A DNA stretch of 32,000 nucleotides from Alkalilimnicola ehrlichii MLHE-1 (GCF_000014785.1 NC_008340.1:1200001-1232000); one strand, 5' to 3'. Counted from the stretch's first letter, positions 3,001 to 26,001 are shown. Program-made: numbers and translations. Notes: generated by a model not told the origin, from the letters alone.

Positions 3001-6000
3001 CCTACGACGAGGCGGAGTCCAATCTGCTGGACATGGCCGACGGTTGGCTCACCACCTATGCCAACGCCGCGGCCGAATCGGAGGACGGGGTCTTCGACGG
3101 CGCCGCCGCCGTCAACTTCGCCCGCTACAACGTCAACGCCGACGCCTGGATCGGTGAGGGCGCCGAGGTGACGGCCGGCGGCACGGCTGGCGATACCGGC
3201 TGGAGCACCGAGCTGCGCCCGGCGCAGGACAATGGCGATCCGGCCCTGAGCCGTCGGTGGAACGAGGCGATCACCGTCAGCGCCGGGGCCGATGTCCGCA
3301 CCATCGACGTCGCCGGCAACGTCGGTGGCCTGCTCACCGCCGGCGTCGCCGGGGACGCCACCGTGGGCATCGGCGCCGGTTTCGCCTGGTTGGAGCGCGG
3401 CGGCCACGTCAGCGCCGGTATCGCCGACCACGCGGTGGTGAGCGCCAGCCACGGGCAGGGCACCATTGGCGTGCACGCCGAGCGCTTCGACCAGTCCATC
3501 GGCATTGCACCCAGTTCCGGCCACGGGGCCAGCTTCGCCGGCAACGGTACGGTGGTGGTCAACCGCCTGGACACCGATACCGTGGCCGCGGTGAGCCACG
3601 CGGCGGCGGTCGACGCCGCGGCACTGACCGTCAGCGCCGGCCGCGATCTGCGCTGGTGGTCGGTGGCCGGTTCCATCACCCTGGCCGAAAGTGTCGCTGT
3701 CGGCGTCGGCATCTCTGTCAACGAACTGCGGACCGATACCCGGGCCGTGATCGGCGATGTGGCCGGTCTCCGCCCGGCGATGGCCGGCGGCGGGGACGTC
3801 ACCGAGCTGGATGACACCGAACAGGGGATTACCGCCGACCAGGTCACCGTGGCCGCACGCAGCGATGGCCTGGTGGGCAGTGCCTCCATCGCCGGCGGCG
3901 CCGCCGGTGAGACCGGCGAGCCGCCGGCCACCGACAACTGGACCGACTCCGGGCTGACCAATGACGTGATTGGTGTCACCTCCGATCGCACCGAAGGGGC
4001 GGAAGCCCCCGAGGATGAGACCATCGCCGAGGCCGTGCAGAGCGGGACCGGCGAGCCAGCCGGGGCGCTGGATGAGCAGGAGGCGTCGGCGGACGACCTG
4101 GACGAGGACGGCGACCTTGCCAACCCGGACCCCACCCAGCCCGACCTGGAGACCTTCCCCGACGAGGGTGCGGACATCCCGGACGCGGGCGCCGATGCCG
4201 ACAGCGAGGAGACGGACCTGGGCGTCGCCGTGGCGGGGTCGGCCTCGGTCAACCTCAGCAGTCTGAACACCACGGCGCTCATCGAGGACGTGTCGCTGGC
4301 GGCGCGCGATGCCGACACCACCGACGTTACCGCCAGCGCGGTGGCCGCCGTTGACACCATCGCCGTCAGCGGCTCCGGGGCCCTGGTGCTGGGCGGTAAC
4401 AGCAGCGACCCTCAGGTGGCCATCGCCGGCACCGTGGGCGTCAATCTGCTCGGCGACCACACCCGGGCGCGGCTGGTGGACACCCGGATCGAGCAACCCG
4501 GCCAGGTGACGGTGGAGGCCCTTCGCGACGGTGAGTTGATCAGCGTCGGCATGGGGTTGGCGATCACCGCCAGTGGCTCCACCAAGGCCGCCGCCGTGGC
4601 CGGTTCCGTCTCCCTCAGCGACATCAGTAATGAGACCGCGGCCACCATCGAGGGCGGCACCATCGGCGACCCCGGGAGCGATCCCGAACCCGACGACGGG
4701 AGCGGGGTGCAGGTGCTGGCCTATGACCGCTCCAGCATCGGGACCGGTGGGGGTTCGCTGTTCGGCGGCAAGGGCGGTGGCTTCGGCGCCGCGGTGACTC
4801 TGGCCCAGGTGCGTAACACCATCGATGCGGGCATTCTCGGTACGCGCATCACCGACGTGGCCGAGGTGACCGTGGATGCCCTCAGCGCCACCCGCATCAT
4901 CAGTGCCGGCGCGGTGCTGGGTTACGGCGGAAAAGGGGCGGTGGGCGGCGCGGTGGTGTTGAACCGCATCGGCAACACCACCAAGGCCGCGATCGCCGAC
5001 CGGGACGACGGCGACGACGTGGAACGCGCGGAGATCACCGCCAATGAGCGGGTGCGGGTGCGGGCGCGCAGCGCCAGTGACGATGAACGCGTGGCGCTGG
5101 ACGACCGCATCGATGCCGCCGGTGGCGGTCACGTTTACAACTTCAGTGGTGAGGGCACCGCGCTGGCCGAGCCCGAGGCCGAAGGTGATCGCGACTGGGG
5201 CGATGACAGCTACGAAACCGGCGGCGATGAGTTCGCCGGCGAGGGCGGCGACCAGGCGGAGATCGACAGCGGCTACGATGACGCCGCCGAGGATGCCCGC
5301 TTCGACGGTGGCCCGCTGGAGGGTGATGCCATTGTCGGTGTGGCCGGCAGCATCAGCGCGAGCGGCAAGGCCAGCATCGGGCTGGCCTTCAGTGGCAACC
5401 AGATCGACAACGACTACATCGCCGAGGTGCGCGGCGCCCGGATCGACGGCGTGGATGGCGAGCTGAGCGTCGATGCCGCCGACCGGTCGCGGGTCATCGG
5501 CCTGGGGGTGGGCGGCGGCGCCTCGGGCAAGGTGGCCATCGCGGGCTCCGGCGCCGCCAATCTGATCGGTGGCGAGGCGCGTGCCACCATCGGCGGCAGC
5601 CGTGCGCAGGCGGACGACGGCCCGGTCCACCTGGCGGAGATCGACGCCGGGGCGGTGAATCTCGGCGCCGATCGCGGTAGCCGCATCGATGCCCTGGCCG
5701 GCAACGTCGCCTTCTCCGGCAAGGCCGGCATCGGTGCCGCCGTGGCCTACAACGCCATCGACACCGCGGTGGCGGCCGAGATCAACCACGCCGATCTCGC
5801 GCTGTCCGGGGGCGACCTGAGCATCGACGCCGGCAGCTCTTCCGACATCTACGGGGTGGCCGTCTCCGGCGGGGGCGGTGGCAAGGTGGCGCTCAACGGC
5901 AGTGCCATCATCAACTTCATCGATCTCGATGTCAGCGCCGGGCTGGGCAGCAGCCGGGTGCGCGACACGGGTGCCGTGCGAATCACCGCCGGCGACCATG

Positions 6001-9000
6001 GCGCCGGTGGCCAGGCCGCCATCTGGAGCCTGGCGGGAGCCATCAACGGTGCCGGCAAGGTCGCGCTGGGTGCGGCGGTGGCCTACAACGAGATCGAATC
6101 CCGCTTTGCCGCGGACATCACCGGCGCCGACATCGAAGCGCTGGGCCCGGTGGATGTGACCGCAGAGGTCAGCGGTGACATCAACACCCTGGGCGCCGCC
6201 GGCGGAGGCGCCGGCAAGGTGGCCCTGGGGGGCGCCGCCACCGTGAGCCGGATCGACAACACCGTCACCGCAAGCCTGACCGGGAGCCGGCTTTACGCCC
6301 CGGCGGCGCTGGTCACCGTGGCGGCGTCGCAGGATAGCCGTATCCGCGCCCTGGGCGCTGCCATTCAGGGTGGCGGCAAGGTGGGCGGGGGCGCGGCAGT
6401 GACCGTTAACCAGATCGGCTCCGGGGTGACTGCCGAGGTGACCGGCGGTGCGCCCGGTCTGCCGGCCGCCATCGATGATCCCGCCGGCGGCGGCGACGCC
6501 GAGGCCCACTACCATCTCGGTCACCTGGTGGTGGATGCCCGCTCGGACAACGAGATTCAGACCATCGCCGCCGGTGCCGCCGCCGGGGGTGTCGGCGGCG
6601 TGGCCGGTTCGGTCTCCACCAACCTGTTCGGCAACCGGACCAAGGCGCGGATCGCCGACGGTGCCGACGTGCTGGCCGAGGGCCACGTGCTGGTGGACGC
6701 CGCCAGCAGCGACAACGTGGCGTTGGTGGCCGGCAGCCTCGGCTTCGGCGGCAAGGCCTTTGGCGCTGCGGGCACCGTCGCGGTCAATATCGTGGAGAGC
6801 GAGACCCACGCCTGGATCGGCGGTGAGGACCCCGGCGACGCCACCGTGGTGGTCGCCCGGGCGCAACAGCCGGGCACGGTCAGTGGCCGTGACCACCGGT
6901 TGCACGCCATCCCCGGGCTGGTGGACAAGTCCGACGGCGAGAACACGTTTGATGACGAGGACGGTGTCGAGATCTACGACAGCGAGGTCGACGACGCCGC
7001 CGAGGACCGCGACGGCACCGGGGGCGGTAGCACCGGAGGCTTCTCGGTGGAGGACGAGGCGGGCGATTACCTGCTCAGCCGCCTGGTCCGGGATGATGAT
7101 CGCGGGGTGGACGGCGTCCGGGTGAGTGCCCGCTCCGATCAGACCACCAGCGCCGCCCTGGCCACCGCCGGCATCTCCGCCAACGTGGTGAAGGGCGGGG
7201 TGGGGTTGGCCGCCACCGCGTTGGTCAACCGCATCGCCGGCGAGACCACCGCCGGTATCCGCAACAGCGAGGTCAGCTCGGAGACCGATGTGGCGGTCTC
7301 TGCCGGAGGGCATGTGCATACCCGCGGCCTGGTCATCGGCGCTGCCCTGGGCAGTGTCGGTGCCTCCGGTGCGGCGGTGGTGGATGTGGTCACCCGCCGG
7401 ACCCGCGCCGGGATCGACGACGCCACGGTGACCGCCGGGGGGCGGATCGACGTGGACGCCGCCGGTTCTCAGAGCACCAGCGGCCTGGCCATCGGGGCCT
7501 CCGGCGGCACCTACGCCAGCCTGGCCGGCGGCGGGGTGGTCAGCCGGCTGGGGGCGCAGACCCTGGCGGAGGTCACCGGCAGTCGCCTGGAGGCGGGCGA
7601 CGTGGGCGTGCAGGCGGACAGCGACACCGGGGTGACGATGCTCACCGGCACCGTCTCGGTGGGTGCCGCGGCCGCCGCCGGCTCCTTCAACGTGGCGGTG
7701 GTGGACGCCGTCACCGTGGCCCGCATCGCCGACAGCGATCAGGACCGTTCCCGGCTCTCGGTGGAGGGCGAGGTGGACGTGGCTGCGGAGTCGTTGAACC
7801 GCTTCGGAACCATTGCCGCCAGCGGTGCCGCCGGCGGCACGGCCATTGCCGGCACCCTGGGCCTGAGCCTGCAACAGAGCGTCACCCAGGCCCGGATCGA
7901 GGGCGCGGCCATCGGCCAGGGGGACGACGATGTCCCCGCGCAGGTTAACGTCCGCGCCCGCGACCACCTGGAGGTGGGGGCCTTTGCCGGTGGTGCCTCC
8001 CTGGGCATGGGGATGGGCCTGGGGGCCGCCGCCAATGTCTTCAGCGGCCAGGCCTCCGTCCTCGCCGAGGTCAGAGACGGCGCGGCGATCGAGGCCGGCG
8101 CGGTGTCGGTCTCCGCCGAGCGCAGTGCCGAGCTGAGCCTGTATACCGCCACCCTGGGTGCCGGCCAGACCGGCTTCAGCGCCGGGGTCGGCGTGATCCT
8201 CCTGGGGGTGGGCGCCGGCGAGGTGACGCCCACCCGGGGCGAGGATGATATCGCCGAAGACGACGTGGAGGGCGGTCTCGAGCGGGAGCTCAATGGCAAC
8301 GGCGGCGGCACTCTGGACACCGCCAATACCTTCGCCAACTTCAGTTTCGAGGGGGATCCGGACAATGACGCCAACACCGAGGACGATGTCGGCGGCAGCC
8401 TCAGCGACGATCAGCGGGACAGCCTGGAGAGCGACCTCGAGTTCAACCTGACCGAGTCGGTGATCGATGGCGATGACCACCAGACGGTGGCCCGCATCGA
8501 TGCCAGCGATCTCCGCGCCGACCGGGTGGACGTGACCGCCGATGACCGGGTGGCCACCCGCAACTACGTGGGCTCCGGTGCGTTGGGGGGTGTCGGCTTC
8601 GGCGCCGCGGTGGGCTTCACCCGGGTGGGTAACGGGGTGGTGGCCGAAATCGGGGGTGACGGCACCCTGGATGTCGGCGAGCTCACCATCCGAGCCGGTC
8701 ACGACGACCTTGGTGGTGGCACTGCGGCGGAGACCCGCGCCTGGGCCGGGGCCGCAGGCGGCATCGGCCTGGCCGCCGCCTATGCCGATGCCGATGTGAC
8801 CACCGGGGTGCGTGCCACCCTGGGCCCGGTGAACCTCCAGCGCGACGCGGCCGACGACGCCGGCGTCGAGCTCACCATCGACGCCTTCGACCACGGCGGG
8901 ACCTATGCCGAGACCATCGGCGTGGCCGCGGGCTTCGTGGCCGGTGTGGGGGCGGCGATCTCCCGCGCGGCGCGAACCTCCACGGTAATCGCCGAGGTGG

Positions 9001-12000
9001 CCGACGACACCGCCGTCGGCAGTGACGACGAGGATTCGGCGGACTTCGATCTCTCCCTCAGCGCCGTCTCCGACGGTGGCGTGGCGGTCGATGGCATCGC
9101 CCTCGGGGCCGGCGTGGTGGGCGGCGGCGCCGCCGCCCTGGCGCTGGGCGAGGAGCGCTCGACGGTGCAGGCGCGCGTGGGCAACGGCGCTGACCTGCGG
9201 CTGGGCGACGGCGCGCTGACCCTGGATGCCCTGGCCCGGCCGGATGTGACCGCGGACGGGGTCGGGGTGGCGGCAGCGGTGACCGGGGCCATCGCTGCGG
9301 CGGTTTCCCGCGCCTACTCTTCGGCCACCGTTGAAGCGGCCGTCGGTGACTTAGACGGCCCCGGTGGCGCCGCGGTGCAGGCGCGCGCGGTGGATGTCCG
9401 GGCACGCAGCCTGCCGGTGGGCAGCTACGGTGCCGAGGCCGAGGCCATCGCGGGGAGTATCGCCAAGGGCGTGGCGGTCTCCGGGTCCTTCGCCTTCGCC
9501 ACCGACACCGCCACCGTAAACGCCGGCCTGGGGCCGGGGGCGGACCTGACCCTGGGCGGCGACGGGCTGTCGGTGTGGGCCGAGGCCGATCCCGCGGCCC
9601 GGGCCCGGACCCACGCCCGCACCTTCGCCGGCGGGGTCGCCTTCGGTGCCAACCTCTCGCAGGCCGCGTCCAATGCCGAGGTGGCAGCGGTGGTGGGTGA
9701 CCAGGCCTCGGTGCGGCTGGCCGACGGGGTGGACGAGGCCGATTTCACCATCCGCGCCATCGCCAATGACGACGGCAGTCGTACCGCCTACGCCACCGGC
9801 GCGGTGAGCGGTGGCGCGCTGCTGGTGTCCGCCAACGGCGGCTATGCCCGGGCCTATGAGCAGACGGCGGTGGACGCCCGCATCGGCACCGGCGCGACCC
9901 TGGACGCCGGTGCCGGTGAGGTGCGGCTGGGCGCCGACGCCACGCCCCACGCCCGGGCCGTGCTCGCCAGCCAGTCTTACGGTGGCGCGTTGGCCATCGG
10001 GGCCGCCATTACCGACGCCCGGGTGGCGGCCGACGTGACCGCTGCCATCGGTGACGGAACCGCCATTCTGGGCGGCGGTGACTTGACGGTGCACGCCCAC
10101 GTCGCCCGCCCGGCGGGTGCCGACAGTGCCTTTGCCCGCTCCGAGGCCAGCAGCGGCGCGCTGGCATCGGCCAATGCGGCCCTGGCGGAGGCCCGCAATC
10201 ACGCCCGGTCGCGGGCGCTGACCGGGGCCGGTGTCACCCTGCCCGGTGGCGTGGTGAGCCTGCGGGCGGAGAACCACAGCCGGCAGCACGGCCACAGTGC
10301 GTCGGAATCCTACGGCGCCTTCGCGGCCGGGATGACCGTGACCCGGGTGGAGTCCGACACCCTGACCCACGCCATCCTCGGCACCGACAACCAGGCCAGC
10401 GACAACGATGATCGGCCGGACGTGGTGGATGTCACCACCAACGCCAGCAGCCACGACCACGGCTTTGGCCAGACTGCCACCGGGGGCGCCATCGACGGGG
10501 CCGCGGCGGAGGTGCATACCTTCAGCACCGCCGATAACCGGGCCCAGGTGCTGGGCCACCACAGCGACCCGCTGCAAGTGGGTGTGCTGAATGTCCGGGC
10601 GCTGCAGGACACCCGCTTCTCCGGCGTGGTGGACACCAGCCGCGCGTCGGTGGCCGGTGCCAGTGGTGCCCGCCTGTACCATAACGCCAACCGGGTCACG
10701 GGCATCGTCAACGTCGACGAGGAGCGGGAGGCCTTCTACGGGGAAACCAGTGTAGTGGAGGCCGGGATCGGCGACCACGCCGATATCCGCGCCCTCTACG
10801 TGGACGTGATCGCCGAGCAGGCGGTGGAGCGCGTCGCCGACGCCGGTAACGACATCCGGGTTGCGGGCGGCGGGGTGCTGGGTGCCTCCGCCGGCCGCGG
10901 CGCCACGTATATTGAGACGATCACCCGGGCGGGTATCGGCACCGGGGCCACGGTCAACGTGGAGCTGGACCTGCTGGTCCGCGCCATCGAGGCGATCACC
11001 GCCGAACAGGTCGCCCGTCTGAACACCGGCAACGCCATCGATATCGCCCGGGCCGAGTCGGTGATGCACACCGATCACCAGAACGACGTGATCATCGGCG
11101 GAAACGCCAACATCACCGCCGGTGGCGATGTGGTGCTCTCCAACGCCACCGAGTTGGACCTGGTGGCTCATACCCGCGCCCGCACCTCCGGGGTGGCCAG
11201 TTTCGCCCGCGGCAACAGCGAGGCGGAGGCCGATGTGCGTGAGGGGATCACCGTGGGCAACGGCGCGCGGCTGGCCTCCGCCGGCAACGTGGTCATGCGC
11301 ACCGGCCTGGGCGACGGCGGTTTGCCGGCTCGCAAGGGCGTGGAGGCCGATACCTACCTGTACAACAAGGGGGCCCTGCCGCTGGAGAACGACCCTCGCG
11401 TGCATGCGGACCTGGTGGTGGACAGCCGTATCGACGTGGCCGACAACGCCGTGGTCGAGGCCGGACAGGACGCCTATCTGATCGCGCCCGTGGGTTTCCG
11501 GTACCGGGCCCGGGGCGAGGGCGAGGGCCAGGACATCTACCGGCGCGCCGCCGAGTCCATCGCCAACTTCTTCCGCCGGCTGGTCCGTGCCGATGAGGTC
11601 TCGCTGGCGAAGGAGGTGCGTAGCGAGGACCTGGTCCGGGGTAGCACCATCACCATCGACGGCCAGGTGGTGGGCGCCGGCGGCATGCACCAATACCTGT
11701 GGGTGCGCCAGGGCGACGATGACGACGAACGCATCCTGGCCAGCCCGGGTGTCGGCTACTTCTTCGAGGAACGCGACGTGCGCGGTGACCTGGAGGCGCT
11801 GGTCGGTGCCTACCGGGATCTGCTGGGGGAATACGTGGAGCCGGATCCGGACGATCCGGAGGGCTCCGGTCTGCTGTTCTGGCGCGCCGCCGCCCAGATC
11901 GAGACCCTCGCCGGCCGCCTGGCTGCCCTGGGGGATGAGGATGACGGGCCCTATGACGGCGGCCGGGCGGTGCCCTTCATCGAGGTGGAGGACATCACCG

Positions 12001-15000
12001 CCACCGGTGGTGATGTGGTCGTCCGGGCGGATGCGGTGGAGGGTGGTGGCGAGGTCCGGTTGGGCCCGGACCTGGAGGCCATCTTCAGCGACTTCGCCGG
12101 TGGGGATCTCAACCAGGTGCCGGCCGAGTTCCTGGAGCCGGGCGGGCCGAGCATTCGCATCCTGGTGGAGTCCAACGAGTGGCTGCAGGTCAACGACCTG
12201 ATCATCGACGACCGCCGTGACGGCAGCATCACCATCGCCCAGGAGAGCGGCGCCTTCGGCGGTATCGCCGTGCCGACCCGGGTCTCCGGGGTGGGTGAAC
12301 TGCCAAGCGGGCTTCGCTACGACACCGGCGGGGTGGAGGCCACCCCGGAGATCCGCGTGGTGCACCAGTTCGAGGTCCCGCCCCAGGAGGACCACCTCTA
12401 CACCAACCCGGAGATCCGCCTGGGCCACGAGCCGGACCCCGCCGACCAACTGGAAGGCGAGTCGGTGACCGCCCGCATCATCAACCCGCGCGGTCTGGTG
12501 CAGGTGGGCAACCAGGCCGGCAGCATTATCTCCTCGGCCAGCATCGAAGCCGCCGCGGTGGAGATCGTCGCCGGTGGTAATTTCGTGCAGAACTGGATTC
12601 CCGGGTTCTTCCACGCCGGCGGGCAGCCCGAGGCCGCCGGCGAGGCCAGCCGCATCCTGGCCGGGGGCGACATCTACATCAGCGCCGAGCACATCAATGT
12701 CAATGGCCTGATCCAGAGCGGGTTCGACGAGTGGACGCTGGATTTCTCCTCCGACCTGCTGGGGAATGCCGGGACCACCCTCGATTTCGACGCCGACAAG
12801 GGCCACAGCCTGGGTGATTACCTGGAGTGGTACGGCAAGGGTTATCGTGCCACCAAGGAGGTGGAGGAGGCCCCGATACCCTTCTGGGCGCAGTTCTTGC
12901 CGCCCTCCATTTGGCACCTGCTGGGCTATGGCTTCGCCCCCGACGTCGACGCGGCGGATGTGCCGGACGATTTCCGCACCGCCTACAACGCCGGCCGTAG
13001 CGGTGAGCAGTTCCTGCAGCTGACCGGCGGCGAGGGCTTCGACGTGGAACTCGGCACCGTGGCCAGCTTCTACGATGCCGAGGCCGACCGCATCGACATC
13101 CAGCGCGCCGCCGTGGGCGGTGGCTACATCTTCCTGGCGGGCGACGTGGTGAGCACCGGCGGAGGCGAGATCCGGGCCTTGTCGGGTTTCGGTGAGATCC
13201 GGGTGGATACCACCGGCGGCGGGGAGGACGCCTTCCGTACTCACCAGGATGTGGTGCTCTATGACCTGGACGCCGGGACCCAACCCCATGCGCCCAGTTT
13301 CGACCTGCCCGAGGAGGAGCTGATTTCTGCGGAGGGCCTAGCGCCCTGCCGGCCCTGCGTGAGGATCTGGGATACCGCCAAGCGTGACGGCGAGGGCAAC
13401 CCCATCGAGACCGTCTTCCAGCACGACTGGAACCCGGACCCAGCGGCCCCGGACGGGAGCTTCGGCACCATCGCCAAGACCGTCTCCCGGCTCGACCGCG
13501 AGCAGCGTGACGATGACTTCTTCCTGCTGCGCACCGTGGTCGACGAGGATGACCCCTTCTATGGCCAGGAGCAGGACGCAGGCTTCGGCCCCCGTCCGGG
13601 GGCCACCGCGCAGTACCTGCCCCGCGAAGGGATGCGCTACCTCTACGGCGACAGCGTGGATGAAGACTCCGGGCGGCTGCTGTTCCCGGACGACGATGTG
13701 CCGTCAGGGCCGGGCTATCAGTCCATGCGGGCGGACCGGGCTATCGACGTCGGGTTCATCGGCAACCCGGTGGGTACCATCGACATCAAGAGCATCGGTG
13801 ACGTGATCATCGACGGCAGTGTGCGCAACCCCCAGGGGCTGACCACGGTGGAGACCGTCGGTAGCATCCGGGAGCCGGAGCAGGGCGGGCTGTTGCAGGG
13901 TCGCCAGCTCACTCTGGAGGCCGGTGGCGCCGTCGGCAGTGAGGGCGCCCCGCTGCGGGTGATCGTGGGTGACGGCGAGGTCACGCCGGACGATGCCTGG
14001 CTGGTGGCCCTGGCCGGGGATGGCGGGGTCTTCCTGGACGGCCTGCGCGGCGATCTGCCGGTGCGCGAGGTGGGGACGCTCAGCGGCCATACCGTGGACA
14101 TCGACGCGGCCCGTCACTTGATCGACCGCGGCACCGCCCCCGACCGGCCCACGGTCTACGGCGCCCGGGTGCATCTGCGTGCCCGGGACGGCTCTATCGG
14201 TGGCAGGGAGCAGGGCGAATTCGTGCTGCCGCTGACCATCGCCTCCGGGGTCGGGGTTGTGGTGGACGATCCGGACGCGCTGCCGGATTGGCTGAACCTT
14301 CCGCTGGGCAGCGCCAACGTAACCGCCCGCGCCGCCGGCCATGTCCTGCTCGCGGAAGATGCCCGCGGACTGGCCAGTGCCGGTGTGCCCGTCGACGGTG
14401 ACATTCACGTGGAGGCGCTCCGCGCCGCCGAAGGCGATGTCCGGCTCTTTATCGCCGACGGCAAGCTGATCAGCGCCATCGACGCCGAGCTCGATACCGA
14501 CCGCATGGTCCGCCTGGGCGAGATGTGGGACTCGCTGGGGATGCTCGACGACGGCTCGCCCAACAGCGGCGTAGCCCGCTTTGTCGAGGATCAGGTGGAG
14601 GCCTTCGAGGCCTCGGTGGAGAGCCGCTACCGTGACTGGTGGGAGCTGGACCGCCTGGCCGGGGAGGACGGCGGCTTCGACCTGGCCCCGGATCGGGCCC
14701 GCATTTACGCCCACCGGGCCGGCGTCGACGGCTCACCGGAGGCGTGGGACGAGACGGCGGACCCGCAGGGCGTGGCCGACAACACCGCCGCGGTCAATGC
14801 CTGGCTGGAGGGCCGTTACGGCGCGCTCAGCGATGAATTGGGCGAACTGCTGCTGGAGGGCAACGGCGACCAGTCCCTGGCGGACCTGGGTACGGTGGTC
14901 GAGGAACCGCTGGCCGAGGATCCGGCCACCGGGGAGATGCTGTTCTATGAACGGGTCGAGTTCGATTACCAGGCGCCGGACAGTGTCCGTGACCAGCTCG

Positions 15001-17165
15001 CGGAAGGGGCGGAGTGGACCGAGGAGCAGTTGCTCAACGTCCTCAGCGAGGACCGGATGCTGGAGACTGTGGACACCCAGTACCAGCGGGTGGAGACCAT
15101 TATCCAGGGGGAGAATGTGGCCATCGAGGCGCCGCGGGGTTCCATCGGCTCGTCTGACGACCCGCTCTGGATCCCGGCCCCCGAGGACGAGGACAGCAAC
15201 TTTGATTTCACCGAGGAGGAACGCGCCGCCCTGGTCAGCGCCCAGCCGGGCGATGTCCGGCTGATCGGCGAGGTGGTGTTGGTGGATGGCCAGGTCATGG
15301 ACCTGGGCGATTTCCTGCGCCTGCTCGGCACCGGGGGCCCCGGCGGGCTCACCCTGGAGGATCTCGACACGGTCGATTTCGACGGCATCGAGATCGAGCA
15401 GGTACGCTACGCCGGGGTCATCGCCACGGAGGGGGGGCAGTCGCACCATGCCGCCGATGACCTTGGCGGCGACATCTTCCTGGGTGTCCCCGGCACCAGC
15501 ATCGCCCTGGAGCGGCTCTGGGGTGGTGGCGACATCCGCGTGCGGGTCGGCGGCGGTATCGAAGCCCACGACGACCCGACACGGGGCGATGATCCGGAAG
15601 ATGCCATCATCCGCGGCGGTGCGGCGGGGGTGCTGCTGGAGGCGGCCGGCGGCGGCATCGGCGCCGAGGGGTTGCCGCTCACCACCGCGTTGGACCCCCG
15701 CGCCCTGATCACCGCCCGGGCCGTGGGCTCGGTGCACCTGCACGCCCTGGGCGGTAACCTGACCCTGGACAGTGTCTTCAGCGAGCAGGGCGATGCCGTG
15801 CTGGCTGCCGACCAGGGGCATATCGCCCGTTTGGCGCTGCCGGGCGCGCCGCTGGCGGACTTCGGCACCCTGGACATCGCCGCCGATGAGATCCGGCTGG
15901 ATGCCGGCACCTTTGTCGGCGCGGTGGATCGCGACGCCTTCCTGGCCCTGGACAGCACGGCTGAGCCGGGGGACCTGGAGGCGGTCACCGACGCCGCCAT
16001 GCGCCTGCGCCACGGTGACGACGCCCGGGTGACCGGTTCTGCCGGGGACCGCTTCCAGGTGTTCGCGCCGGAAGGGGGGCTGGTGGTCCGCGATGTGGAA
16101 GCCGGCGGCCGGGTCGTGGCCGGCGCCTGGGAGGATGTCACCCTGGAGCGGGTGACCAGCACCGCTGGCGACGGCGAGGCGGCCTTCGTCTTCAGCGAGA
16201 CGGGCTTCATCATCGGCAGCAATGAGGCCGGCCTGGAGGAACCGCTACACCTGCGGGCACTGGGCGGGGACGCCACCACGCGGTTGATCGCCCCGCTGGG
16301 CATCGGTCTGCCCGATGACTTCCTGTTCCTCGATGCCACCCGGATCAGCTCCGCCACCACCCTGGGCGGTCACGCCTTCCTCCACGGCACCACCGATTTG
16401 CGAGCCGATCTGATAGACGTGCCCACCGGGCGGTTGGAGGTGCGCGCGCCCCAGGCCATCGAAATCGATCGGTTGCGGGTTCACGACCGGGTGGACCTCA
16501 AGGGCGACGCCATCGAGGCGCACATCGAGCACACCGCCAACCCGGACCCGCTGCCGCTGGACGTGGTGGGCCTGGTCGAGCACTACGCATCGGAGGTGGA
16601 CCTGTCCGTGGACACCCCGGCCGATCTCATCGTCGAGCGGCTCTATGCCCGCCGCGCCCGATTGGAGACCAACACCACGCGAGTCGACATGCCGGACAAC
16701 GACATCTTCCACTGGTTGGAGGTGTTCACGCCGGAGGTCCACCTGTGGGCCGACAACCAGCGGCCCGACCGGCGCGACGTGGACGTCCAGCTCTATGAGC
16801 CGGGGTACCGCTTCTTTGTCGACCAGGACGGGCGGCACACCATCACCAACGCCTTCAGCGGCGCCTACCGGCCCGGCTACCGCCTGGAGCTGGTCAACTA
16901 TCAACCGGGCCGCGACCGCGCCCGTTTCGATGTGGATGGTCGCAGCATTGTGCGCGATGCCGGTCGGCTGGAGCAGCGCATCGTGCCGATCCCCGACACC
17001 CTGCCGGGGCTGCGGGCCTTCTGGCCGGACGACGAGGTCTCGGTGCAGGTGGTCGGTGCCGGCCTGCCGGGGGCGCCGCCCGACTTCCCGGTTAACCTGG
17101 ACTGGACCGGTCTGTTGCAGGGCGATGACGATCAATCCGGGGCAGAGGAGAATGGCGCTCAATGA
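1..17165 (+). CDS. Giant secreted filamentous exoprotein, TpsA-like / LktA-family-like beta-helical adhesin (5' partial, >5,718 aa)
   Basis: One uninterrupted frame runs from the window edge (codons in phase with nt 3/9) to TGA at 17163-17165. The true start and any N-terminal TPS secretion domain therefore lie upstream of the window. The translation is Gly/Ala/Val/Asp/Thr-rich with recurring beta-helix-like units (e.g. GAGKVALGAAVAYNEI). It has almost no Lys and only two Cys, as expected for type V secreted filamentous proteins. Its stop overlaps the start of a TpsB gene. The family call rests on motif recognition plus context, not on a search. Confidence 0.9.
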   Translation, partial: ALVPEGLEEVAESAIDSGLEAVDDELDNQDLPDFGLGLGLVDASAIVTLEDGAELDAGGNVNIHAEAQRTARAEAHADGDGLGGAFALASISGQTAVTVEEGASIVAGGDIDLRAASHNELVAEAVTEVGDGFDVGLGGSVALGFLQSEPEDGGTTVQVQEGATLAAGGDLGLSAFTEHDVTVDATTTLGSGGEAAFGATVAYLGLDWTTRTLLTGGAVADDTVEPPVGIVAGGDLRMVARTDQAIHTGASVETTGDISVGLAAAVAELNNTTRVVLDGTVRAGGDATLLAESITRAQHTVATTRAAEDADNNGGNGNDGPDEAADDQGTSDYVAGLVGDVDTGEPEETPGAGGNGGLALDIGAAVAYTDARDSASTTLGGNTQLLPPAGPLGPGGQVAIVSRRQLDNLSTRARSGTEATGPDGDDGANSINAAVSYARLDQIARTEIADGARIEAGRIGVGAEVDLPARVAWGDEDNEDGPGGLDDIAGADSDDLDDWLTSEASTSSETGGTVNIAGAVNLLDLTATAEALVGTGDDPTDVTTLHAVGDGGDWETELGGDTTWHWDDAVAVAARSRVETVDVAGQAAAAGTVGVGGGVNWHLRESTARARLAGSADISADTGGVSVSADRRDRAIVLTPIAGESDGGAVGLGASVAYARIDGTSQAQLDEGAMVAAGGALAVTAGGDLHAEILTASKTSGDATAGIAGTVAFADISLDTTAAVHGQPVDNALEVGDLYLHALDLQDYQVQASAEAQGDVAIGLAGAVLDTEAGTRALLYRDVTTDGDVVLIADSETTGRGVAASTRAETGEAGDNGNGENNTGDDRDLNTVDFVQQRGERGNEGVDDGLQDVAGDPGAGQSEEAGFDVNVGAAVAFTGADDSAGAHIGEAVTISGPGGGAAGDVAVLARRAESGYRGRAQTEVETAPEDDGVGVGVGAALTLTFMDNSAEALIGASAVVDAHRVGVAADVILPDHFEGPAWDGLETLRDLAQDDDDELTYDEAESNLLDMADGWLTTYANAAAESEDGVFDGAAAVNFARYNVNADAWIGEGAEVTAGGTAGDTGWSTELRPAQDNGDPALSRRWNEAITVSAGADVRTIDVAGNVGGLLTAGVAGDATVGIGAGFAWLERGGHVSAGIADHAVVSASHGQGTIGVHAERFDQSIGIAPSSGHGASFAGNGTVVVNRLDTDTVAAVSHAAAVDAAALTVSAGRDLRWWSVAGSITLAESVAVGVGISVNELRTDTRAVIGDVAGLRPAMAGGGDVTELDDTEQGITADQVTVAARSDGLVGSASIAGGAAGETGEPPATDNWTDSGLTNDVIGVTSDRTEGAEAPEDETIAEAVQSGTGEPAGALDEQEASADDLDEDGDLANPDPTQPDLETFPDEGADIPDAGADADSEETDLGVAVAGSASVNLSSLNTTALIEDVSLAARDADTTDVTASAVAAVDTIAVSGSGALVLGGNSSDPQVAIAGTVGVNLLGDHTRARLVDTRIEQPGQVTVEALRDGELISVGMGLAITASGSTKAAAVAGSVSLSDISNETAATIEGGTIGDPGSDPEPDDGSGVQVLAYDRSSIGTGGGSLFGGKGGGFGAAVTLAQVRNTIDAGILGTRITDVAEVTVDALSATRIISAGAVLGYGGKGAVGGAVVLNRIGNTTKAAIADRDDGDDVERAEITANERVRVRARSASDDERVALDDRIDAAGGGHVYNFSGEGTALAEPEAEGDRDWGDDSYETGGDEFAGEGGDQAEIDSGYDDAAEDARFDGGPLEGDAIVGVAGSISASGKASIGLAFSGNQIDNDYIAEVRGARIDGVDGELSVDAADRSRVIGLGVGGGASGKVAIAGSGAANLIGGEARATIGGSRAQADDGPVHLAEIDAGAVNLGADRGSRIDALAGNVAFSGKAGIGAAVAYNAIDTAVAAEINHADLALSGGDLSIDAGSSSDIYGVAVSGGGGGKVALNGSAIINFIDLDVSAGLGSSRVRDTGAVRITAGDHGAGGQAAIWSLAGAINGAGKVALGAAVAYNEIESRFAADITGADIEALGPVDVTAEVSGDINTLGAAGGGAGKVALGGAATVSRIDNTVTASLTGSRLYAPAALVTVAASQDSRIRALGAAIQGGGKVGGGAAVTVNQIGSGVTAEVTGGAPGLPAAIDDPAGGGDAEAHYHLGHLVVDARSDNEIQTIAAGAAAGGVGGVAGSVSTNLFGNRTKARIADGADVLAEGHVLVDAASSDNVALVAGSLGFGGKAFGAAGTVAVNIVESETHAWIGGEDPGDATVVVARAQQPGTVSGRDHRLHAIPGLVDKSDGENTFDDEDGVEIYDSEVDDAAEDRDGTGGGSTGGFSVEDEAGDYLLSRLVRDDDRGVDGVRVSARSDQTTSAALATAGISANVVKGGVGLAATALVNRIAGETTAGIRNSEVSSETDVAVSAGGHVHTRGLVIGAALGSVGASGAAVVDVVTRRTRAGIDDATVTAGGRIDVDAAGSQSTSGLAIGASGGTYASLAGGGVVSRLGAQTLAEVTGSRLEAGDVGVQADSDTGVTMLTGTVSVGAAAAAGSFNVAVVDAVTVARIADSDQDRSRLSVEGEVDVAAESLNRFGTIAASGAAGGTAIAGTLGLSLQQSVTQARIEGAAIGQGDDDVPAQVNVRARDHLEVGAFAGGASLGMGMGLGAAANVFSGQASVLAEVRDGAAIEAGAVSVSAERSAELSLYTATLGAGQTGFSAGVGVILLGVGAGEVTPTRGEDDIAEDDVEGGLERELNGNGGGTLDTANTFANFSFEGDPDNDANTEDDVGGSLSDDQRDSLESDLEFNLTESVIDGDDHQTVARIDASDLRADRVDVTADDRVATRNYVGSGALGGVGFGAAVGFTRVGNGVVAEIGGDGTLDVGELTIRAGHDDLGGGTAAETRAWAGAAGGIGLAAAYADADVTTGVRATLGPVNLQRDAADDAGVELTIDAFDHGGTYAETIGVAAGFVAGVGAAISRAARTSTVIAEVADDTAVGSDDEDSADFDLSLSAVSDGGVAVDGIALGAGVVGGGAAALALGEERSTVQARVGNGADLRLGDGALTLDALARPDVTADGVGVAAAVTGAIAAAVSRAYSSATVEAAVGDLDGPGGAAVQARAVDVRARSLPVGSYGAEAEAIAGSIAKGVAVSGSFAFATDTATVNAGLGPGADLTLGGDGLSVWAEADPAARARTHARTFAGGVAFGANLSQAASNAEVAAVVGDQASVRLADGVDEADFTIRAIANDDGSRTAYATGAVSGGALLVSANGGYARAYEQTAVDARIGTGATLDAGAGEVRLGADATPHARAVLASQSYGGALAIGAAITDARVAADVTAAIGDGTAILGGGDLTVHAHVARPAGADSAFARSEASSGALASANAALAEARNHARSRALTGAGVTLPGGVVSLRAENHSRQHGHSASESYGAFAAGMTVTRVESDTLTHAILGTDNQASDNDDRPDVVDVTTNASSHDHGFGQTATGGAIDGAAAEVHTFSTADNRAQVLGHHSDPLQVGVLNVRALQDTRFSGVVDTSRASVAGASGARLYHNANRVTGIVNVDEEREAFYGETSVVEAGIGDHADIRALYVDVIAEQAVERVADAGNDIRVAGGGVLGASAGRGATYIETITRAGIGTGATVNVELDLLVRAIEAITAEQVARLNTGNAIDIARAESVMHTDHQNDVIIGGNANITAGGDVVLSNATELDLVAHTRARTSGVASFARGNSEAEADVREGITVGNGARLASAGNVVMRTGLGDGGLPARKGVEADTYLYNKGALPLENDPRVHADLVVDSRIDVADNAVVEAGQDAYLIAPVGFRYRARGEGEGQDIYRRAAESIANFFRRLVRADEVSLAKEVRSEDLVRGSTITIDGQVVGAGGMHQYLWVRQGDDDDERILASPGVGYFFEERDVRGDLEALVGAYRDLLGEYVEPDPDDPEGSGLLFWRAAAQIETLAGRLAALGDEDDGPYDGGRAVPFIEVEDITATGGDVVVRADAVEGGGEVRLGPDLEAIFSDFAGGDLNQVPAEFLEPGGPSIRILVESNEWLQVNDLIIDDRRDGSITIAQESGAFGGIAVPTRVSGVGELPSGLRYDTGGVEATPEIRVVHQFEVPPQEDHLYTNPEIRLGHEPDPADQLEGESVTARIINPRGLVQVGNQAGSIISSASIEAAAVEIVAGGNFVQNWIPGFFHAGGQPEAAGEASRILAGGDIYISAEHINVNGLIQSGFDEWTLDFSSDLLGNAGTTLDFDADKGHSLGDYLEWYGKGYRATKEVEEAPIPFWAQFLPPSIWHLLGYGFAPDVDAADVPDDFRTAYNAGRSGEQFLQLTGGEGFDVELGTVASFYDAEADRIDIQRAAVGGGYIFLAGDVVSTGGGEIRALSGFGEIRVDTTGGGEDAFRTHQDVVLYDLDAGTQPHAPSFDLPEEELISAEGLAPCRPCVRIWDTAKRDGEGNPIETVFQHDWNPDPAAPDGSFGTIAKTVSRLDREQRDDDFFLLRTVVDEDDPFYGQEQDAGFGPRPGATAQYLPREGMRYLYGDSVDEDSGRLLFPDDDVPSGPGYQSMRADRAIDVGFIGNPVGTIDIKSIGDVIIDGSVRNPQGLTTVETVGSIREPEQGGLLQGRQLTLEAGGAVGSEGAPLRVIVGDGEVTPDDAWLVALAGDGGVFLDGLRGDLPVREVGTLSGHTVDIDAARHLIDRGTAPDRPTVYGARVHLRARDGSIGGREQGEFVLPLTIASGVGVVVDDPDALPDWLNLPLGSANVTARAAGHVLLAEDARGLASAGVPVDGDIHVEALRAAEGDVRLFIADGKLISAIDAELDTDRMVRLGEMWDSLGMLDDGSPNSGVARFVEDQVEAFEASVESRYRDWWELDRLAGEDGGFDLAPDRARIYAHRAGVDGSPEAWDETADPQGVADNTAAVNAWLEGRYGALSDELGELLLEGNGDQSLADLGTVVEEPLAEDPATGEMLFYERVEFDYQAPDSVRDQLAEGAEWTEEQLLNVLSEDRMLETVDTQYQRVETIIQGENVAIEAPRGSIGSSDDPLWIPAPEDEDSNFDFTEEERAALVSAQPGDVRLIGEVVLVDGQVMDLGDFLRLLGTGGPGGLTLEDLDTVDFDGIEIEQVRYAGVIATEGGQSHHAADDLGGDIFLGVPGTSIALERLWGGGDIRVRVGGGIEAHDDPTRGDDPEDAIIRGGAAGVLLEAAGGGIGAEGLPLTTALDPRALITARAVGSVHLHALGGNLTLDSVFSEQGDAVLAADQGHIARLALPGAPLADFGTLDIAADEIRLDAGTFVGAVDRDAFLALDSTAEPGDLEAVTDAAMRLRHGDDARVTGSAGDRFQVFAPEGGLVVRDVEAGGRVVAGAWEDVTLERVTSTAGDGEAAFVFSETGFIIGSNEAGLEEPLHLRALGGDATTRLIAPLGIGLPDDFLFLDATRISSATTLGGHAFLHGTTDLRADLIDVPTGRLEVRAPQAIEIDRLRVHDRVDLKGDAIEAHIEHTANPDPLPLDVVGLVEHYASEVDLSVDTPADLIVERLYARRARLETNTTRVDMPDNDIFHWLEVFTPEVHLWADNQRPDRRDVDVQLYEPGYRFFVDQDGRHTITNAFSGAYRPGYRLELVNYQPGRDRARFDVDGRSIVRDAGRLEQRIVPIPDTLPGLRAFWPDDEVSVQVVGAGLPGAPPDFPVNLDWTGLLQGDDDQSGAEENGAQ
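4767..6800 (+). repeat. Degenerate tandem ~54-codon coding repeats (G-G-K-x-x-x-G-x-A-x-x-x-N/x-x-I modules) inside the giant ORF
   Basis: In-frame Gly-Lys motifs have Lys codons at 4770, 4932, 5367, 5529, 5721, 5883, 6057, 6216, 6378 and 6753. Most spacings are 159-192 nt, and 162 nt is the commonest. Unit examples: FGGKGGGFGAAVTLAQV, YGGKGAVGGAVVLNRI, ASGKVAIAGSGAANLI, FSGKAGIGAAVAYNAI, GGGKVALNGSAIINFI, GAGKVALGAAVAYNEI, GAGKVALGGAATVSRI, GGGKVGGGAAVTVNQI, FGGKAFGAAGTVAVNI. The repeats are diverged at the DNA level. Confidence 0.8.
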
Positions 17166-18847
17166 AGCGGTGGGGCTCGGAAGAATCGCGGCGGGCGCCG
17201 CTGCTGGCGGTGGTCGTTTGCCTTCCCCTGCTGACGGCGGGTGCGGTCCATGCGCAGACACCGGGCGCCCAGCCCGAACCCGGGCCGGGCGTCGATCCGG
17301 CGCTCCAGTTGCGGGAGTTGTTGCGCGAGCGTGAGCGCCTGGAGGAGCGCGGGCCACGGCCGGAGGAACCCGAGCTGGATATCCCGGAGCTCGTCCTGCC
17401 CGACCTGGAGGATGAGACGGTGGAGTTCCTCCTCAGAGAGATCCGCTTCTCCCCTACGGAGCTGCTGGACGAGCAGTGGCTCACCGAGCTGGCGGAGGAA
17501 TACATCGGGGAAGTGGTCAGTTTCGGTCAGGTGAACGAGCTGGTGGAACGCATCAACAGCGCCTATGCCAAACAGGGCGATGTCACTGCCCGGGCCTTCG
17601 TGCCGCCACAGCAGATCGTCGACGGCCGGCTGCAGATCCTGCTGGTGGAGGCCCGGATCGGTAGCGTGGCCGTGGAGGGGGCCGAGCACACCGAACCGCG
17701 GTACATCCGCGGCCGTATCCCGCTGGAGGAGGGCGAGGTGCTGCGGGTGCCCGATCTGCGCGCCTCGGTGCGTGAATTCAACCGTCGTGAGGCGCTGCAG
17801 GCCGGCGTGGCGCTGCGTCCGGGCGAGGCGTTCGGTGAAAGCGATGTGGTCCTGCAGATGCTTGAACCCCCGCGGCTGCGCTACCAGCTCTTTGCCGACA
17901 ACGCCGGCGCACGCAGTACCGGTGAAGAGCGGATCGGCGGCATGGCCAGTTGGTATTCGCCCTTCGGCCGGGCCGACCGGTTCACCGCCTTTCTGGTGGG
18001 AAGTAGCGGGGCCACCGCCCTCGACTTGAGCTACGCCACCCCTGTCGGCCATCGCGGGGCGGCCCTCACCGCCCGCCTCGCCTACAACGAGATCGAGATC
18101 GTCCGTGGTCCGCTGCGCGATCTGGACATAGAGGGTGAATCGTTGCGTGGTTCCCTGCGCTATACCCATCCCCTGGCATGGAGCGAGCGCCGCACCTGGG
18201 ATGCCGTCGGCAGCCTGGGCTATGTCCGCTCCAAGACCGAACTGGACGGGGTTACTTTCGCCGACAACGAGGTGACGCGGGTGGACGCAGGCGTGCGCCT
18301 GCGCCAGTACGGCCAACCCGGTCCCCACACCCACTTCCTCGAGGTCGAGCAACGCCTGGCCCACGCCCACTTCCGGGAGAGCGCCGGGGAACTGGATGAG
18401 ACCGATGACAGCCTGCTCTGGGATGGCCGCCTGCTCTGGGAGCAGCGCCTGCCCCGGGCCTTTTATACCCTGTCGCGGGCCGAGTGGCAGTATGCCGACA
18501 GCCCGGAGGCGGTGCTCTCACCGCAGCTCTTCCAGGTGGGCGGCGCTTTCGACGTGCGCGGCTACCCGCAAGGGGCCACCGCGGGTGAGAGCGGCTATTA
18601 CCTCAGCCTGGAGTTGCGCTACGCCGGCTTTGCCGCCGTGGAGCCCTTCGTCTTCGTTGATCACGGCGGGGTGCGCCAGGAGGACCAGGATAACGAGCGC
18701 CTGACGAGCTGGGGCGCCGGTGCCTTCCTGGACCTCGGTCGCGGCTTCTCCGGCAGCCTGACGGTAGGCGTGCCCGCCAGCGACGTGTTGCCGGACCAGG
18801 ACGACTACCGGATCCATTTCCGGATCGCCTGGCAGGGCCAGCGCTGA
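17162..18847 (+). CDS. Two-partner secretion outer-membrane transporter, ShlB/FhaC/HecB (TpsB, Omp85 superfamily)
   Basis: ATG 17162 overlaps the giant-ORF stop (ATGA), with GAGGAG 11 nt upstream. There is a signal peptide, MKRWGSEESRRAPLLAVVVCLPLLTAGAVHA/QT. A POTRA-like region follows (VEFLLREIRFSPTELL...INSAYAKQGDVTARAFVPPQQIVDGRLQILLVEARIGSVAVEG). It also carries an FADNAGARSTGEER motif and the TpsB/Omp85 loop-6 motif FDVRGY (nt 18554-18565). At 561 aa it is a typical size for this family. Confidence 0.9.
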   Translation: MKRWGSEESRRAPLLAVVVCLPLLTAGAVHAQTPGAQPEPGPGVDPALQLRELLRERERLEERGPRPEEPELDIPELVLPDLEDETVEFLLREIRFSPTELLDEQWLTELAEEYIGEVVSFGQVNELVERINSAYAKQGDVTARAFVPPQQIVDGRLQILLVEARIGSVAVEGAEHTEPRYIRGRIPLEEGEVLRVPDLRASVREFNRREALQAGVALRPGEAFGESDVVLQMLEPPRLRYQLFADNAGARSTGEERIGGMASWYSPFGRADRFTAFLVGSSGATALDLSYATPVGHRGAALTARLAYNEIEIVRGPLRDLDIEGESLRGSLRYTHPLAWSERRTWDAVGSLGYVRSKTELDGVTFADNEVTRVDAGVRLRQYGQPGPHTHFLEVEQRLAHAHFRESAGELDETDDSLLWDGRLLWEQRLPRAFYTLSRAEWQYADSPEAVLSPQLFQVGGAFDVRGYPQGATAGESGYYLSLELRYAGFAAVEPFVFVDHGGVRQEDQDNERLTSWGAGAFLDLGRGFSGSLTVGVPASDVLPDQDDYRIHFRIAWQGQR

Positions 18848-24861: not shown

Positions 24862-24960
24862 TGACCCGGCGTGCCGTGCCCGCTGGAAGCGTGCCGGTTG
24901 TCCGGATGACTGATGTTCAGAATAAGTAGGCGCCAAGACATGGCGCACGGGAGACTGTGG

Positions 24961-26001
24961 ATGGAGCAGGCAGACCGGAATCAACTGAACGAGGCGGTAA
25001 ACCAAGCCTTTTTGCGCTATCTGGACACCTGGCTGAGGAAGCGTGATGCCGCTGCGTTGCATGACCTCAACGGGCCGCTGGTGCATGGCTTCGGGACCGG
25101 TGCCAACGAGTCGGTCTATGACCCGGACGAGGCCCGCGAGGTCATTGAACGGGATATCAGCCAGGTGCCTGAGCCGTTTGAGTACGCCGTTCGTACGGCC
25201 AAGGTGACGCCGCTGTGCACGGACGTGGCGCTGGTGGCGGCGGATATCGGGATTCGCAACACTATCCTGGCGCAAGGGCAGGAGCTGGCCCTGGACCATC
25301 TGCGCCTTACCCTGGTCTTCCGATACATTGACGGGGCCTGGCGACTGGAGCACCTGCACGGCTCCTTTCCCGCCACCGAGCCTGATGGAGAAGAGGCCTG
25401 GCCGTTGCAAGCGCTTGAGGACCGTGCGGCGGTGCTTCAGCGCAAGGTGTGGGAGCGTTATCGCGCGCAGGAGGCAGCCCGGCAATGCGAGGAGGGGCAG
25501 GCCAGCACCGATGCGCTTACCGGCCTTCCCAATCGCGAGAGGATGGATGAGCTGCTGCACCGGGAGGTGGCGGGCCTGAACGGGCAGTCCGGGGCCCTGG
25601 CGGTGATCCTGATTGACATCGACCATCTCAATCTGGTCAACGAGGGCCTTGGCCAGGAAGCGGGCGATCGGGTGTTGGCCGACGTCGCCAATATCTTGCG
25701 CGATCGGATTCGCGTCACCGATGCGTTGGCGCGGTGGGGCGGGGGGGCATTCCTGTTGGCCTGCCCGATGACGGACGGCCTGGAGGCCGAATACCTGGCG
25801 CGGGCCCTGCGACGGGCCGTGGCGGAGACGGATTTCGGGTTGGGTTTCCCGTTGACGGCGAGTTTTGGGGTTACCGCCCTGCAAGCGGGGGATACCGTGC
25901 CGGGGCTGATTCGGCGGGCTGAGCGTGGCCTGCGCCAGGCCAAAGAGGCGGGGCGGGATACGGTGCAGGTGGTTTGTCGGGAGGAGATCGTGCCGGGCTA
26001 G
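24961..26001 (+). CDS. NTF2/SnoaL-like N-terminal domain fused to a degenerate GGDEF domain (GGGAF active-site motif, intact RxxD I-site)
   Basis: The GGDEF-domain core reads DALTGLPNRERMDELL...AVILIDIDHLNLVNEGLGQEAGDRVLADVA...RVTDALARWGGGAFLLACP...GRDTVQVV. RVTD is at 25711-25722 and GGGAF at 25738-25752. I prefer the start at 24961 (MEQADRNQ...) because GGGAGA lies 7 nt upstream. In-frame alternatives are 24913 (the track start) and 24940. The NTF2-like call for the first ~150 aa is low-confidence pattern recognition. Confidence 0.85.
   Translation: MEQADRNQLNEAVNQAFLRYLDTWLRKRDAAALHDLNGPLVHGFGTGANESVYDPDEAREVIERDISQVPEPFEYAVRTAKVTPLCTDVALVAADIGIRNTILAQGQELALDHLRLTLVFRYIDGAWRLEHLHGSFPATEPDGEEAWPLQALEDRAAVLQRKVWERYRAQEAARQCEEGQASTDALTGLPNRERMDELLHREVAGLNGQSGALAVILIDIDHLNLVNEGLGQEAGDRVLADVANILRDRIRVTDALARWGGGAFLLACPMTDGLEAEYLARALRRAVAETDFGLGFPLTASFGVTALQAGDTVPGLIRRAERGLRQAKEAGRDTVQVVCREEIVPG

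Follow-up and report, generated by a model that had tools for sequence, protein, structure and literature searches.

A tight cysteine pair, proposed as a small disulphide staple, in a giant two-partner-secretion exoprotein of Alkalilimnicola ehrlichii

Introduction

Proteins of the type V secretion systems (T5SS) contain few cysteines, which lie only a few residues apart, and the small loops that such cysteines can close are compatible with translocation across the outer membrane (PMC8151025, PMC3546941). In this work, we examined a cysteine pair, Cys-Arg-Pro-Cys (CRPC), in a giant protein encoded on a stretch of 32,000 nucleotides of Alkalilimnicola ehrlichii MLHE-1 (NC_008340.1:1200001-1232000). 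The whole stretch is called the window below; nucleotide positions are counted from its first letter and residues are numbered according to the open reading frame (ORF) as translated from it. The original prediction, made from the sequence alone, had taken the protein for a type V substrate that avoids cysteine, had considered the lone close pair an outstanding feature, and had offered for it a redox-active or metal-binding CxxC motif or, instead, a small disulphide staple in a folded domain.

IcsA of Shigella, a type Va protein, carries the pair C375/C379, whose intramolecular disulphide depends on DsbB, is made in the periplasm before export and is retained afterwards; it is dispensable for production and secretion and influences the conformation of the passenger. 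The short pair modulates conformational heterogeneity and was compared by the authors to a redox switch (PMC9769942). As in IcsA, the pair of the window protein is short-range and is located in the body of a largely beta passenger that is otherwise nearly Cys-free. However, IcsA contains a third, unpaired Cys and has the C375/C379 spacing, whereas the window protein, with about 6,000 residues and an i/i+3 spacing, belongs to the type Vb TpsA proteins. Moreover, CRPC, as known here from sequence and a structural model, is part of a loop that only its clade possesses, within an insert domain that is not a solenoid.

VacA and Ssp-1, as far as they are summarised in PMC9769942, contain Cys pairs with an 11-residue spacing, and pairing affects the protein levels. 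These passengers resemble the window protein in having a single Cys pair in a Cys-poor chain and differ from it in the commonest spacing (11 as compared to 3) and in the location of the pair at the C-terminal end of the passenger, which points to a function in the first translocation hairpin, rather than at an internal site of a TpsA. Two-partner-secretion (TPS) exoproteins such as HMW1 and HxuA also carry a Cys pair, which is C-terminal, forms a disulphide and acts as an anchor (PMC5422565, PMC8151025). This anchor is found within a few dozen residues of the C-terminus and acts as a plug of the TpsB pore, whereas the pair of the window protein is internal.

We propose that CRPC is a putative structural disulphide staple, small enough to be compatible with translocation and located in a folded subdomain; to this reading we assign a probability of about 0.55. 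Among the options of the original prediction, it is the one that fits best.

Results

The giant protein contains only two cysteines, three residues apart

Re-translation of the giant ORF (window 9..17165, plus strand) gave 5,718 residues with only two Cys, at positions 4447 and 4450, within SAEGLAPCRPCVRIWD. Cys4447-Arg-Pro-Cys4450 is encoded by TGC CGG CCC TGC (nt 13347-13358) and forms a single CxxC motif, as had been read originally. Since the frame runs open up to the 5' end of the window, the gene is cut there and 5,718 residues is a truncated count; with respect to the full-length orthologue P0151 (6,067 aa), about 342 N-terminal residues lie outside the window. The sole additional Cys of P0151 is residue 43, in the signal-peptide region. 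Residues 1-60 of this orthologue form a long basic N-terminal extension in which Cys43 is found in AISAALACGGAF, near a possible signal-peptide cleavage site; the surrounding sequence is no canonical lipobox.

Cysteine represents 0.03% of the giant ORF, as compared to an average of 0.61% in the seven other genes of the window. About 35 Cys would be expected from the average of these neighbours (Poisson P(<=2) ~5e-13), and about 67 from the position-specific base composition of the giant ORF itself. Two Cys placed at random would fall <=3 residues apart with P ~0.001. Both the depletion of Cys and the close spacing of the two that are present are therefore beyond chance. A sequencing or frameshift artefact was rejected, because the CxxC motif recurs in three independent assemblies. 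Attachment of a c-type haem (CxxCH) was also rejected, since the sequence reads CRPCV.

The giant protein is a type Vb exoprotein

The gene that directly follows the giant ORF encodes TpsB, as indicated by Pfam matches to PF03865 (ShlB, 5.5e-27) and PF08479 (POTRA_2, 3.7e-16). The stop of tpsA shares the sequence ATGA (window 17162-17165) with the start of tpsB, and this overlap implies translational coupling of exoprotein and transporter. The same tpsA-tpsB arrangement is found in L001, the only genomic locus retrieved in the genome scan, which comes from a metagenome-assembled genome of an uncultured member of the Ectothiorhodospiraceae. Repeats of the NCBIfam family NF012206 (LktA_tand_53), described in that database as 'tandem repeat-containing filamentous protein', were detected in both of the first two 2,000-residue pieces, as 16 stretches each (nt 9-12008; E 6.5e-48 and 1.2e-43), and not at all in nt 12009-17162. 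Pfam gave no match anywhere in the giant protein; when five sub-pieces were searched at E values up to 10, only noise was obtained (SPMIP5, YodE, AcrF2), each below its cut-off.

The TPS secretion domain (PF05860) is present at the N-terminus of full-length relatives (P0011, 2.7e-17; P0002, 2.7e-07), and P0002 is named in NCBI 'leukotoxin LktA family filamentous adhesin [Marinobacter sp.]'. In the full-length orthologue P0151 the match is weak (E 0.0036, 17.7 bits with respect to a cut-off of 33.5), and the window lacks the N-terminus of the giant protein. The adjoining ShlB/FhaC-type TpsB with its POTRA_2 domain, the LktA_tand_53 repeats, and the TPS domains and naming of relatives establish that the giant protein is an LktA-type two-partner-secretion (type Vb, TpsA) exoprotein; the original assignment to the type V substrates was thus supported. 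The protein is acidic and Lys-poor, with 28 Lys as compared to 323 Arg and 929 Asp plus Glu. All proteins encoded in the window are acidic and very low in lysine (0.3-2.5%), and the window has 69% G+C. These acidic, Lys-poor proteins, together with the high G+C content, suggest a halophilic host. This host would be a gammaproteobacterium related to the Ectothiorhodospiraceae.

CRPC is conserved in a shallow clade and lies in an insertion

The clade is represented by three further sequences, with identities to the window protein of 87% (P0001, a partial sequence), 86% (P0151) and 67-68% over about 2,760 residues (the product of L001). Each contains exactly two Cys, leaving aside the signal-peptide Cys of P0151, and in the same place (LAPCRPCVRIWD; in L001, LDPCRPCIRIWD). 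Conservation of the CxxC in close homologues was therefore observed in 3/3 cases. The first Cys is encoded by TGT in L001 and by TGC in the window, a synonymous change, and different codons are used at 9 of the 21 identical residues that flank the motif. These synonymous differences indicate that the amino acids around CRPC were held under nucleotide divergence. Word-indexed protein searches with queries of 601 and 146 residues around the motif returned no hit, and a scan of JGI metagenomes returned no relative, so that no further member of the clade was obtained.

The next relatives, P0002 and P0003, are about 33% identical to the window protein; these and all others lack both Cys at the CRPC site. 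Two independent MAFFT alignments agree on this site. LDxG and the strand that follows (turn and strand consensus L-D-t-G-r-G-v-q-G-x-I-x-I-t-D) are separated by a short turn of about 8 residues in the relatives, as compared to 28 residues (TQPHAPSFDLPEEELISAEGLAPCRPC) in the window clade. The approximately 20 extra residues end in P-C-R-P-C, immediately ahead of the conserved strand VRIWD. According to these alignments, CRPC is clade-specific and belongs to an insertion that is missing from all relatives at <=33% identity.

The insertion lies in a predicted beta-rich subdomain

An exhaustive HMMER search of representative sequences, carried out with residues 3900-5099 as query, gave 296 representative relatives. 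Four conserved blocks, A to D (window 12129-15275, residues ~4041-5089; Table 1), are common to these 296 representative clusters of LktA-type TpsA proteins. This module gave no match in Pfam, NCBIfam or the PDB, and it looks like an undescribed domain family. CRPC is located between blocks B and C.

Residues 4320-4900 were modelled with AlphaFold2 on a 27-sequence alignment (mean predicted local distance difference test score, pLDDT, 78.5; predicted template-modelling score 0.73). The modelled region is nearly all beta. Cys4447 is placed in a moderate-confidence loop of the insertion (means of 10-residue blocks 66, 61 and 57), and Cys4450 opens a confident strand, 4450-4459 (model residues 131-140, block pLDDT 89), which pairs with strand 4465-4473 (model residues 146-154, block pLDDT 87). 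In this model the motif region is not disordered, and CRPC does not cap a helix as a thioredoxin-type CxxC does. Disorder here and loss of the motif from close homologues were the two findings that the original prediction had named as counting against it, and neither was observed. A Foldseek search of the model against the PDB gave nothing at E <= 1e-3 and only weak beta-helix-like matches (4phb, SufD), and PDB searches with the protein sequence and with the profile of alignment A1 gave nothing meaningful.

The CxxC sites of thioredoxins (CGPC, CPHC) and zinc knuckles (CPxCG) share with CRPC only the C-x-x-C pattern with an internal proline, and CRPC is unlike them in that it comes with no thioredoxin fold, helix N-cap, second knuckle or other Cys. 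If CRPC were redox-active or redox-sensing, it would cycle between dithiol and disulphide, for example with shifts in sulphide and oxygen, and would switch the conformation of the C-terminal module or undergo thiol-disulphide exchange with a partner. The C-x-P-C pattern recalls thioredoxin CGPC, the relatives include sulphur-oxidising Ectothiorhodospiraceae, and a DsrE-like gene is present in the window; furthermore, the short pair of IcsA modulates conformation and was likened to a redox switch (PMC9769942). On the other hand, the motif is predicted in a loop that enters a beta-strand and not at the start of a helix, no thioredoxin-like domain was revealed by Pfam, NCBIfam, a sequence search of the PDB or Foldseek, and the motif is not conserved outside the clade. 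The redox option thus found no support, and we consider it very unlikely.

The metal-binding option would require the two thiolates to act together with His or Asp (His4427, and His4472 or Asp4473 on the partner strand) in binding Zn, Cu or Fe, by which the subdomain would be stabilised or regulated. A CxxC directly before a beta-strand resembles a zinc knuckle. Zinc ribbons and knuckles normally use four ligands, supplied by two CxxC knuckles or by one CxxC and two His of defined geometry. His4427 and His4472 are kept in all four clade sequences, and, judging from the strand register assigned by DSSP to the model, the hairpin could bring His4472 near Cys4450. However, the mature protein has only two Cys and hence no second knuckle, and no metal-binding family was matched in Pfam. 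His4472 is not coupled to the Cys, as P0002 and P0003 have this His but neither Cys. In proteins that pass through the oxidising periplasm on their way to the surface, metal sites with thiolate ligands are uncommon. With only two Cys available, this option is weak, and a metal site appears distinctly unlikely.

Close cysteine pairs are the norm in the family

Family Cys statistics were obtained from the best 150 relatives (374,837 residues in total), which contain 392 Cys (0.10%). The avoidance of Cys that had been postulated is thus real and extends to the whole family, and 49 of the 150 relatives have no Cys at all beyond the signal peptide. Where Cys do occur past residue 60, 59% of them have another Cys within 20 residues, as compared to 8.6% when positions were shuffled; a spacing of 6 is the most frequent. 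A lone close pair therefore does not stand out, contrary to the initial view, since it corresponds to the norm in the relatives as well as to the published norm for type V passengers (PMC8151025, PMC9769942). Considering the published rule of few and close Cys and the IcsA analogue, CRPC is an instance of the known type V pattern and not an exception to it. What is particular to CRPC is the size of the protein, the fact that the pair is the sole one, the unusually tight i/i+3 spacing, and its location in a clade-specific insertion of an unannotated domain.

The stretch between blocks B and C is variable (about 170-300 residues long) and accounts for 7.5% of the residues, yet it contains 42 of the 95 close Cys pairs (44%; binomial P ~2e-22, a value that is indicative only, given that the sequences are related). 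In 28 of 107 relatives, this stretch carries the motif W..CNWWTLC...TYY (W-x-x-C-N-W-W-T-L-C-x-x-x-T-Y-Y), whose second Cys lies exactly 21 residues before block C; carriers include P0006, P0014, P0017, P0019, P0020, P0027, P0028, P0030 and P0031. The other 14 close pairs of the B-C stretch occupy other positions within it. The occurrence of close pairs at several different positions suggests that short staples were gained there repeatedly.

The CNWWTLC pair of these LktA-type relatives is short and belongs to the same subdomain as CRPC, from which it differs in position and in its spacing of 6. In the alignment, the window clade has lost a segment of about 110 residues that bears CNWWTLC, so that the two pairs are not homologous. 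Homology of CRPC to either CNWWTLC or the mid-linker pairs was rejected because they occupy different alignment columns.

A Cys pair is also found <=30 residues from the C-terminus in 11 distant relatives, for example P0003, P0014, P0017, P0028, P0033 and P0039, and recalls the disulphide anchor of HMW1 and HxuA. As to the window protein, an anchor of the HMW1/HxuA type was rejected, because CRPC lies 1,268 residues from the C-terminus and no Cys follows residue 4450. The lack of a C-terminal pair suggests that this protein is possibly released and not tethered by such an anchor.

A putative disulphide staple in the insert subdomain

According to the proposed mechanism, after Sec export the periplasmic oxidase (DsbA/DsbB) or air would join the thiols of Cys4447 and Cys4450, either in the periplasm or once outside the cell, giving a four-residue ring, C-R-P-C. 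As the ring encloses only two residues (Arg-Pro), it would not hinder the unfolded chain on its way through the TpsB channel, and we propose that the pair is tolerated in an otherwise Cys-purged protein because the ring is harmless to translocation. Once the protein is folded, the ring would pin the end of the acidic surface loop of about 20 residues to the first strand of the beta-hairpin. The pinned loop would belong to the beta-rich, variable subdomain that has a conserved beta-solenoid block on either side.

Several points weigh against this proposal. The CxxC spacing is rare among the relatives (4 of the 150 proteins), and a ring enclosing two residues staples a structure less strongly than the C-x4-6-C loops that are usual. 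The evidence for conservation within the clade, which comes from sequence comparison, is thin, as there are only three further sequences, of which two fall into a single 90% cluster. Near the motif, the identity to L001 is 80-83%, only about one standard deviation (SD) over the mean of the protein (68%, SD 13%). Finally, the pLDDT of the insertion is only 57-66, with a very shallow alignment depth in this region.

Some of these observations would also be explained if the pair were near-neutral, that is, if it came with the clade insertion and persists since it is harmless to secretion, with no structural or functional role. The restriction of the motif to one shallow clade and its absence from all relatives <=33% identical agree with such an origin, as do the only slightly raised local conservation and the 49 relatives that do without Cys; in addition, loss of the short pair leaves production and secretion of IcsA unaffected (PMC9769942). 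Nevertheless, both Cys are retained where overall identity has dropped to 67% and codons have changed synonymously, in spite of a Cys depletion of about 20-30 fold, and the build-up of short pairs in the B-C subdomain across the relatives, about 6-fold, points to some benefit there. We regard a near-neutral pair as unlikely, and prefer the disulphide staple.

A more far-reaching scenario can also be envisaged, in which CRPC is a redox- or metal-responsive switch on a giant surface filament of a halophilic sulphur bacterium. Oxidation or reduction of the only thiol pair, for instance when sulphide gives way to oxygen or the reverse, or its loading with metal, would re-set the conformation of the acidic loop and of the C-terminal module and so tune adhesion. 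The B-C insert of the LktA-type TpsA proteins would then be a domain not described before, which has acquired short disulphides repeatedly as conformational latches. We give this scenario a very slim chance.

Features of the window

The features that concern the exoprotein, its transporter and the CRPC region are collected in Table 1.

Table 1. Position of the exoprotein and transporter genes and of the elements around CRPC in the window
Feature	Position (nt)	Strand	Basis
Giant tpsA-like gene, 5'-truncated by the window	3..17165 (listed ORF 9..17165, 5,718 aa)	+	ORF list, translation, repeats, orthologue P0151
Conserved block A	12129..12758 (residues 4041-4250)	+	Recurrent matched stretch q142-351 in phmmer hits
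Conserved block B, motif GGY..L.G.I.sTG.G.lrvlDGYG.I.V.N	12993..13220 (residues 4329-4404)	+	Matched stretch q430-505; alignments A1, A2
Variable beta-rich subdomain between blocks B and C, remodelled in the clade	13221..13718 (residues 4405-4570)	+	Linker lengths, Cys tables, AlphaFold2, alignment A2
Clade-specific insertion TQPHAPSFDLPEEELISAEGLAPCRPC, between LDAG turn and strand VRIWD	13278..13358 (residues 4424-4450)	+	Two MAFFT alignments; pLDDT 57-66
CxxC motif Cys4447-Arg-Pro-Cys4450	13347..13358	+	Conserved in P0001, P0151, L001
Predicted beta-hairpin begun by Cys4450: CVRIWDTAKR, turn DGEGN, PIETVFQHD	13356..13427 (residues 4450-4473)	+	DSSP on AlphaFold2 model
Conserved block C, predicted beta-solenoid then helical hairpin	13719..14675 (residues 4571-4889)	+	Matched stretch q672-990; pLDDT mostly 84-96
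Conserved block D	14958..15275 (residues 4984-5089)	+	Matched stretch q1085-1190
tpsB, outer-membrane transporter (POTRA_2 + ShlB/FhaC barrel)	17162..18847	+	Pfam; start overlaps tpsA stop

Long antisense ORFs are present within the giant gene, at 438-8894 (minus strand, 2,818 aa) and at 9351-13289 (minus strand, 1,312 aa). These are most likely shadow ORFs, arising from the 69% G+C content and the Ala/Gly/Asp-rich codon usage, and not genes.

The gene after tpsB (18945-23327, plus strand) encodes a protein of 1,460 aa, for which PADLOC gave no match. The protein comprises DUF7379, an alpha/beta-hydrolase region of the LCAT-like type and, at its C-terminus, a CHAT (caspase-like) domain. In L001 a SapC gene takes the position of the CHAT gene, and this linkage is not conserved. 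Further downstream from the adhesin locus lie two genes for diguanylate cyclases in convergent orientation, SnoaL_3-GGDEF (24913-26001, plus strand) and HDOD-GGDEF (25998-27557, minus strand), which overlap by 4 nt at their 3' ends. These two GGDEF genes might provide control of surface adhesion by cyclic diguanylate (c-di-GMP). A DsrE-like ORF at 28251-28688 fits a sulphur-oxidising relative of the Ectothiorhodospiraceae.

Significance

With CRPC, the rule that only short-range Cys pairs are tolerated in type V secretion has a clear natural illustration, which now covers one of the largest TpsA proteins and about 150 relatives. This result is not surprising, but it is useful for annotation and for the design of secretion-compatible fusions. 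A by-product of the analysis is maybe more valuable, namely a widespread, unannotated C-terminal module with a hot spot of Cys pairs in a variable insert domain. Should these pairs turn out to act as functional latches, as the pair of IcsA does, they would give access to the way in which giant filaments fold or switch after export.

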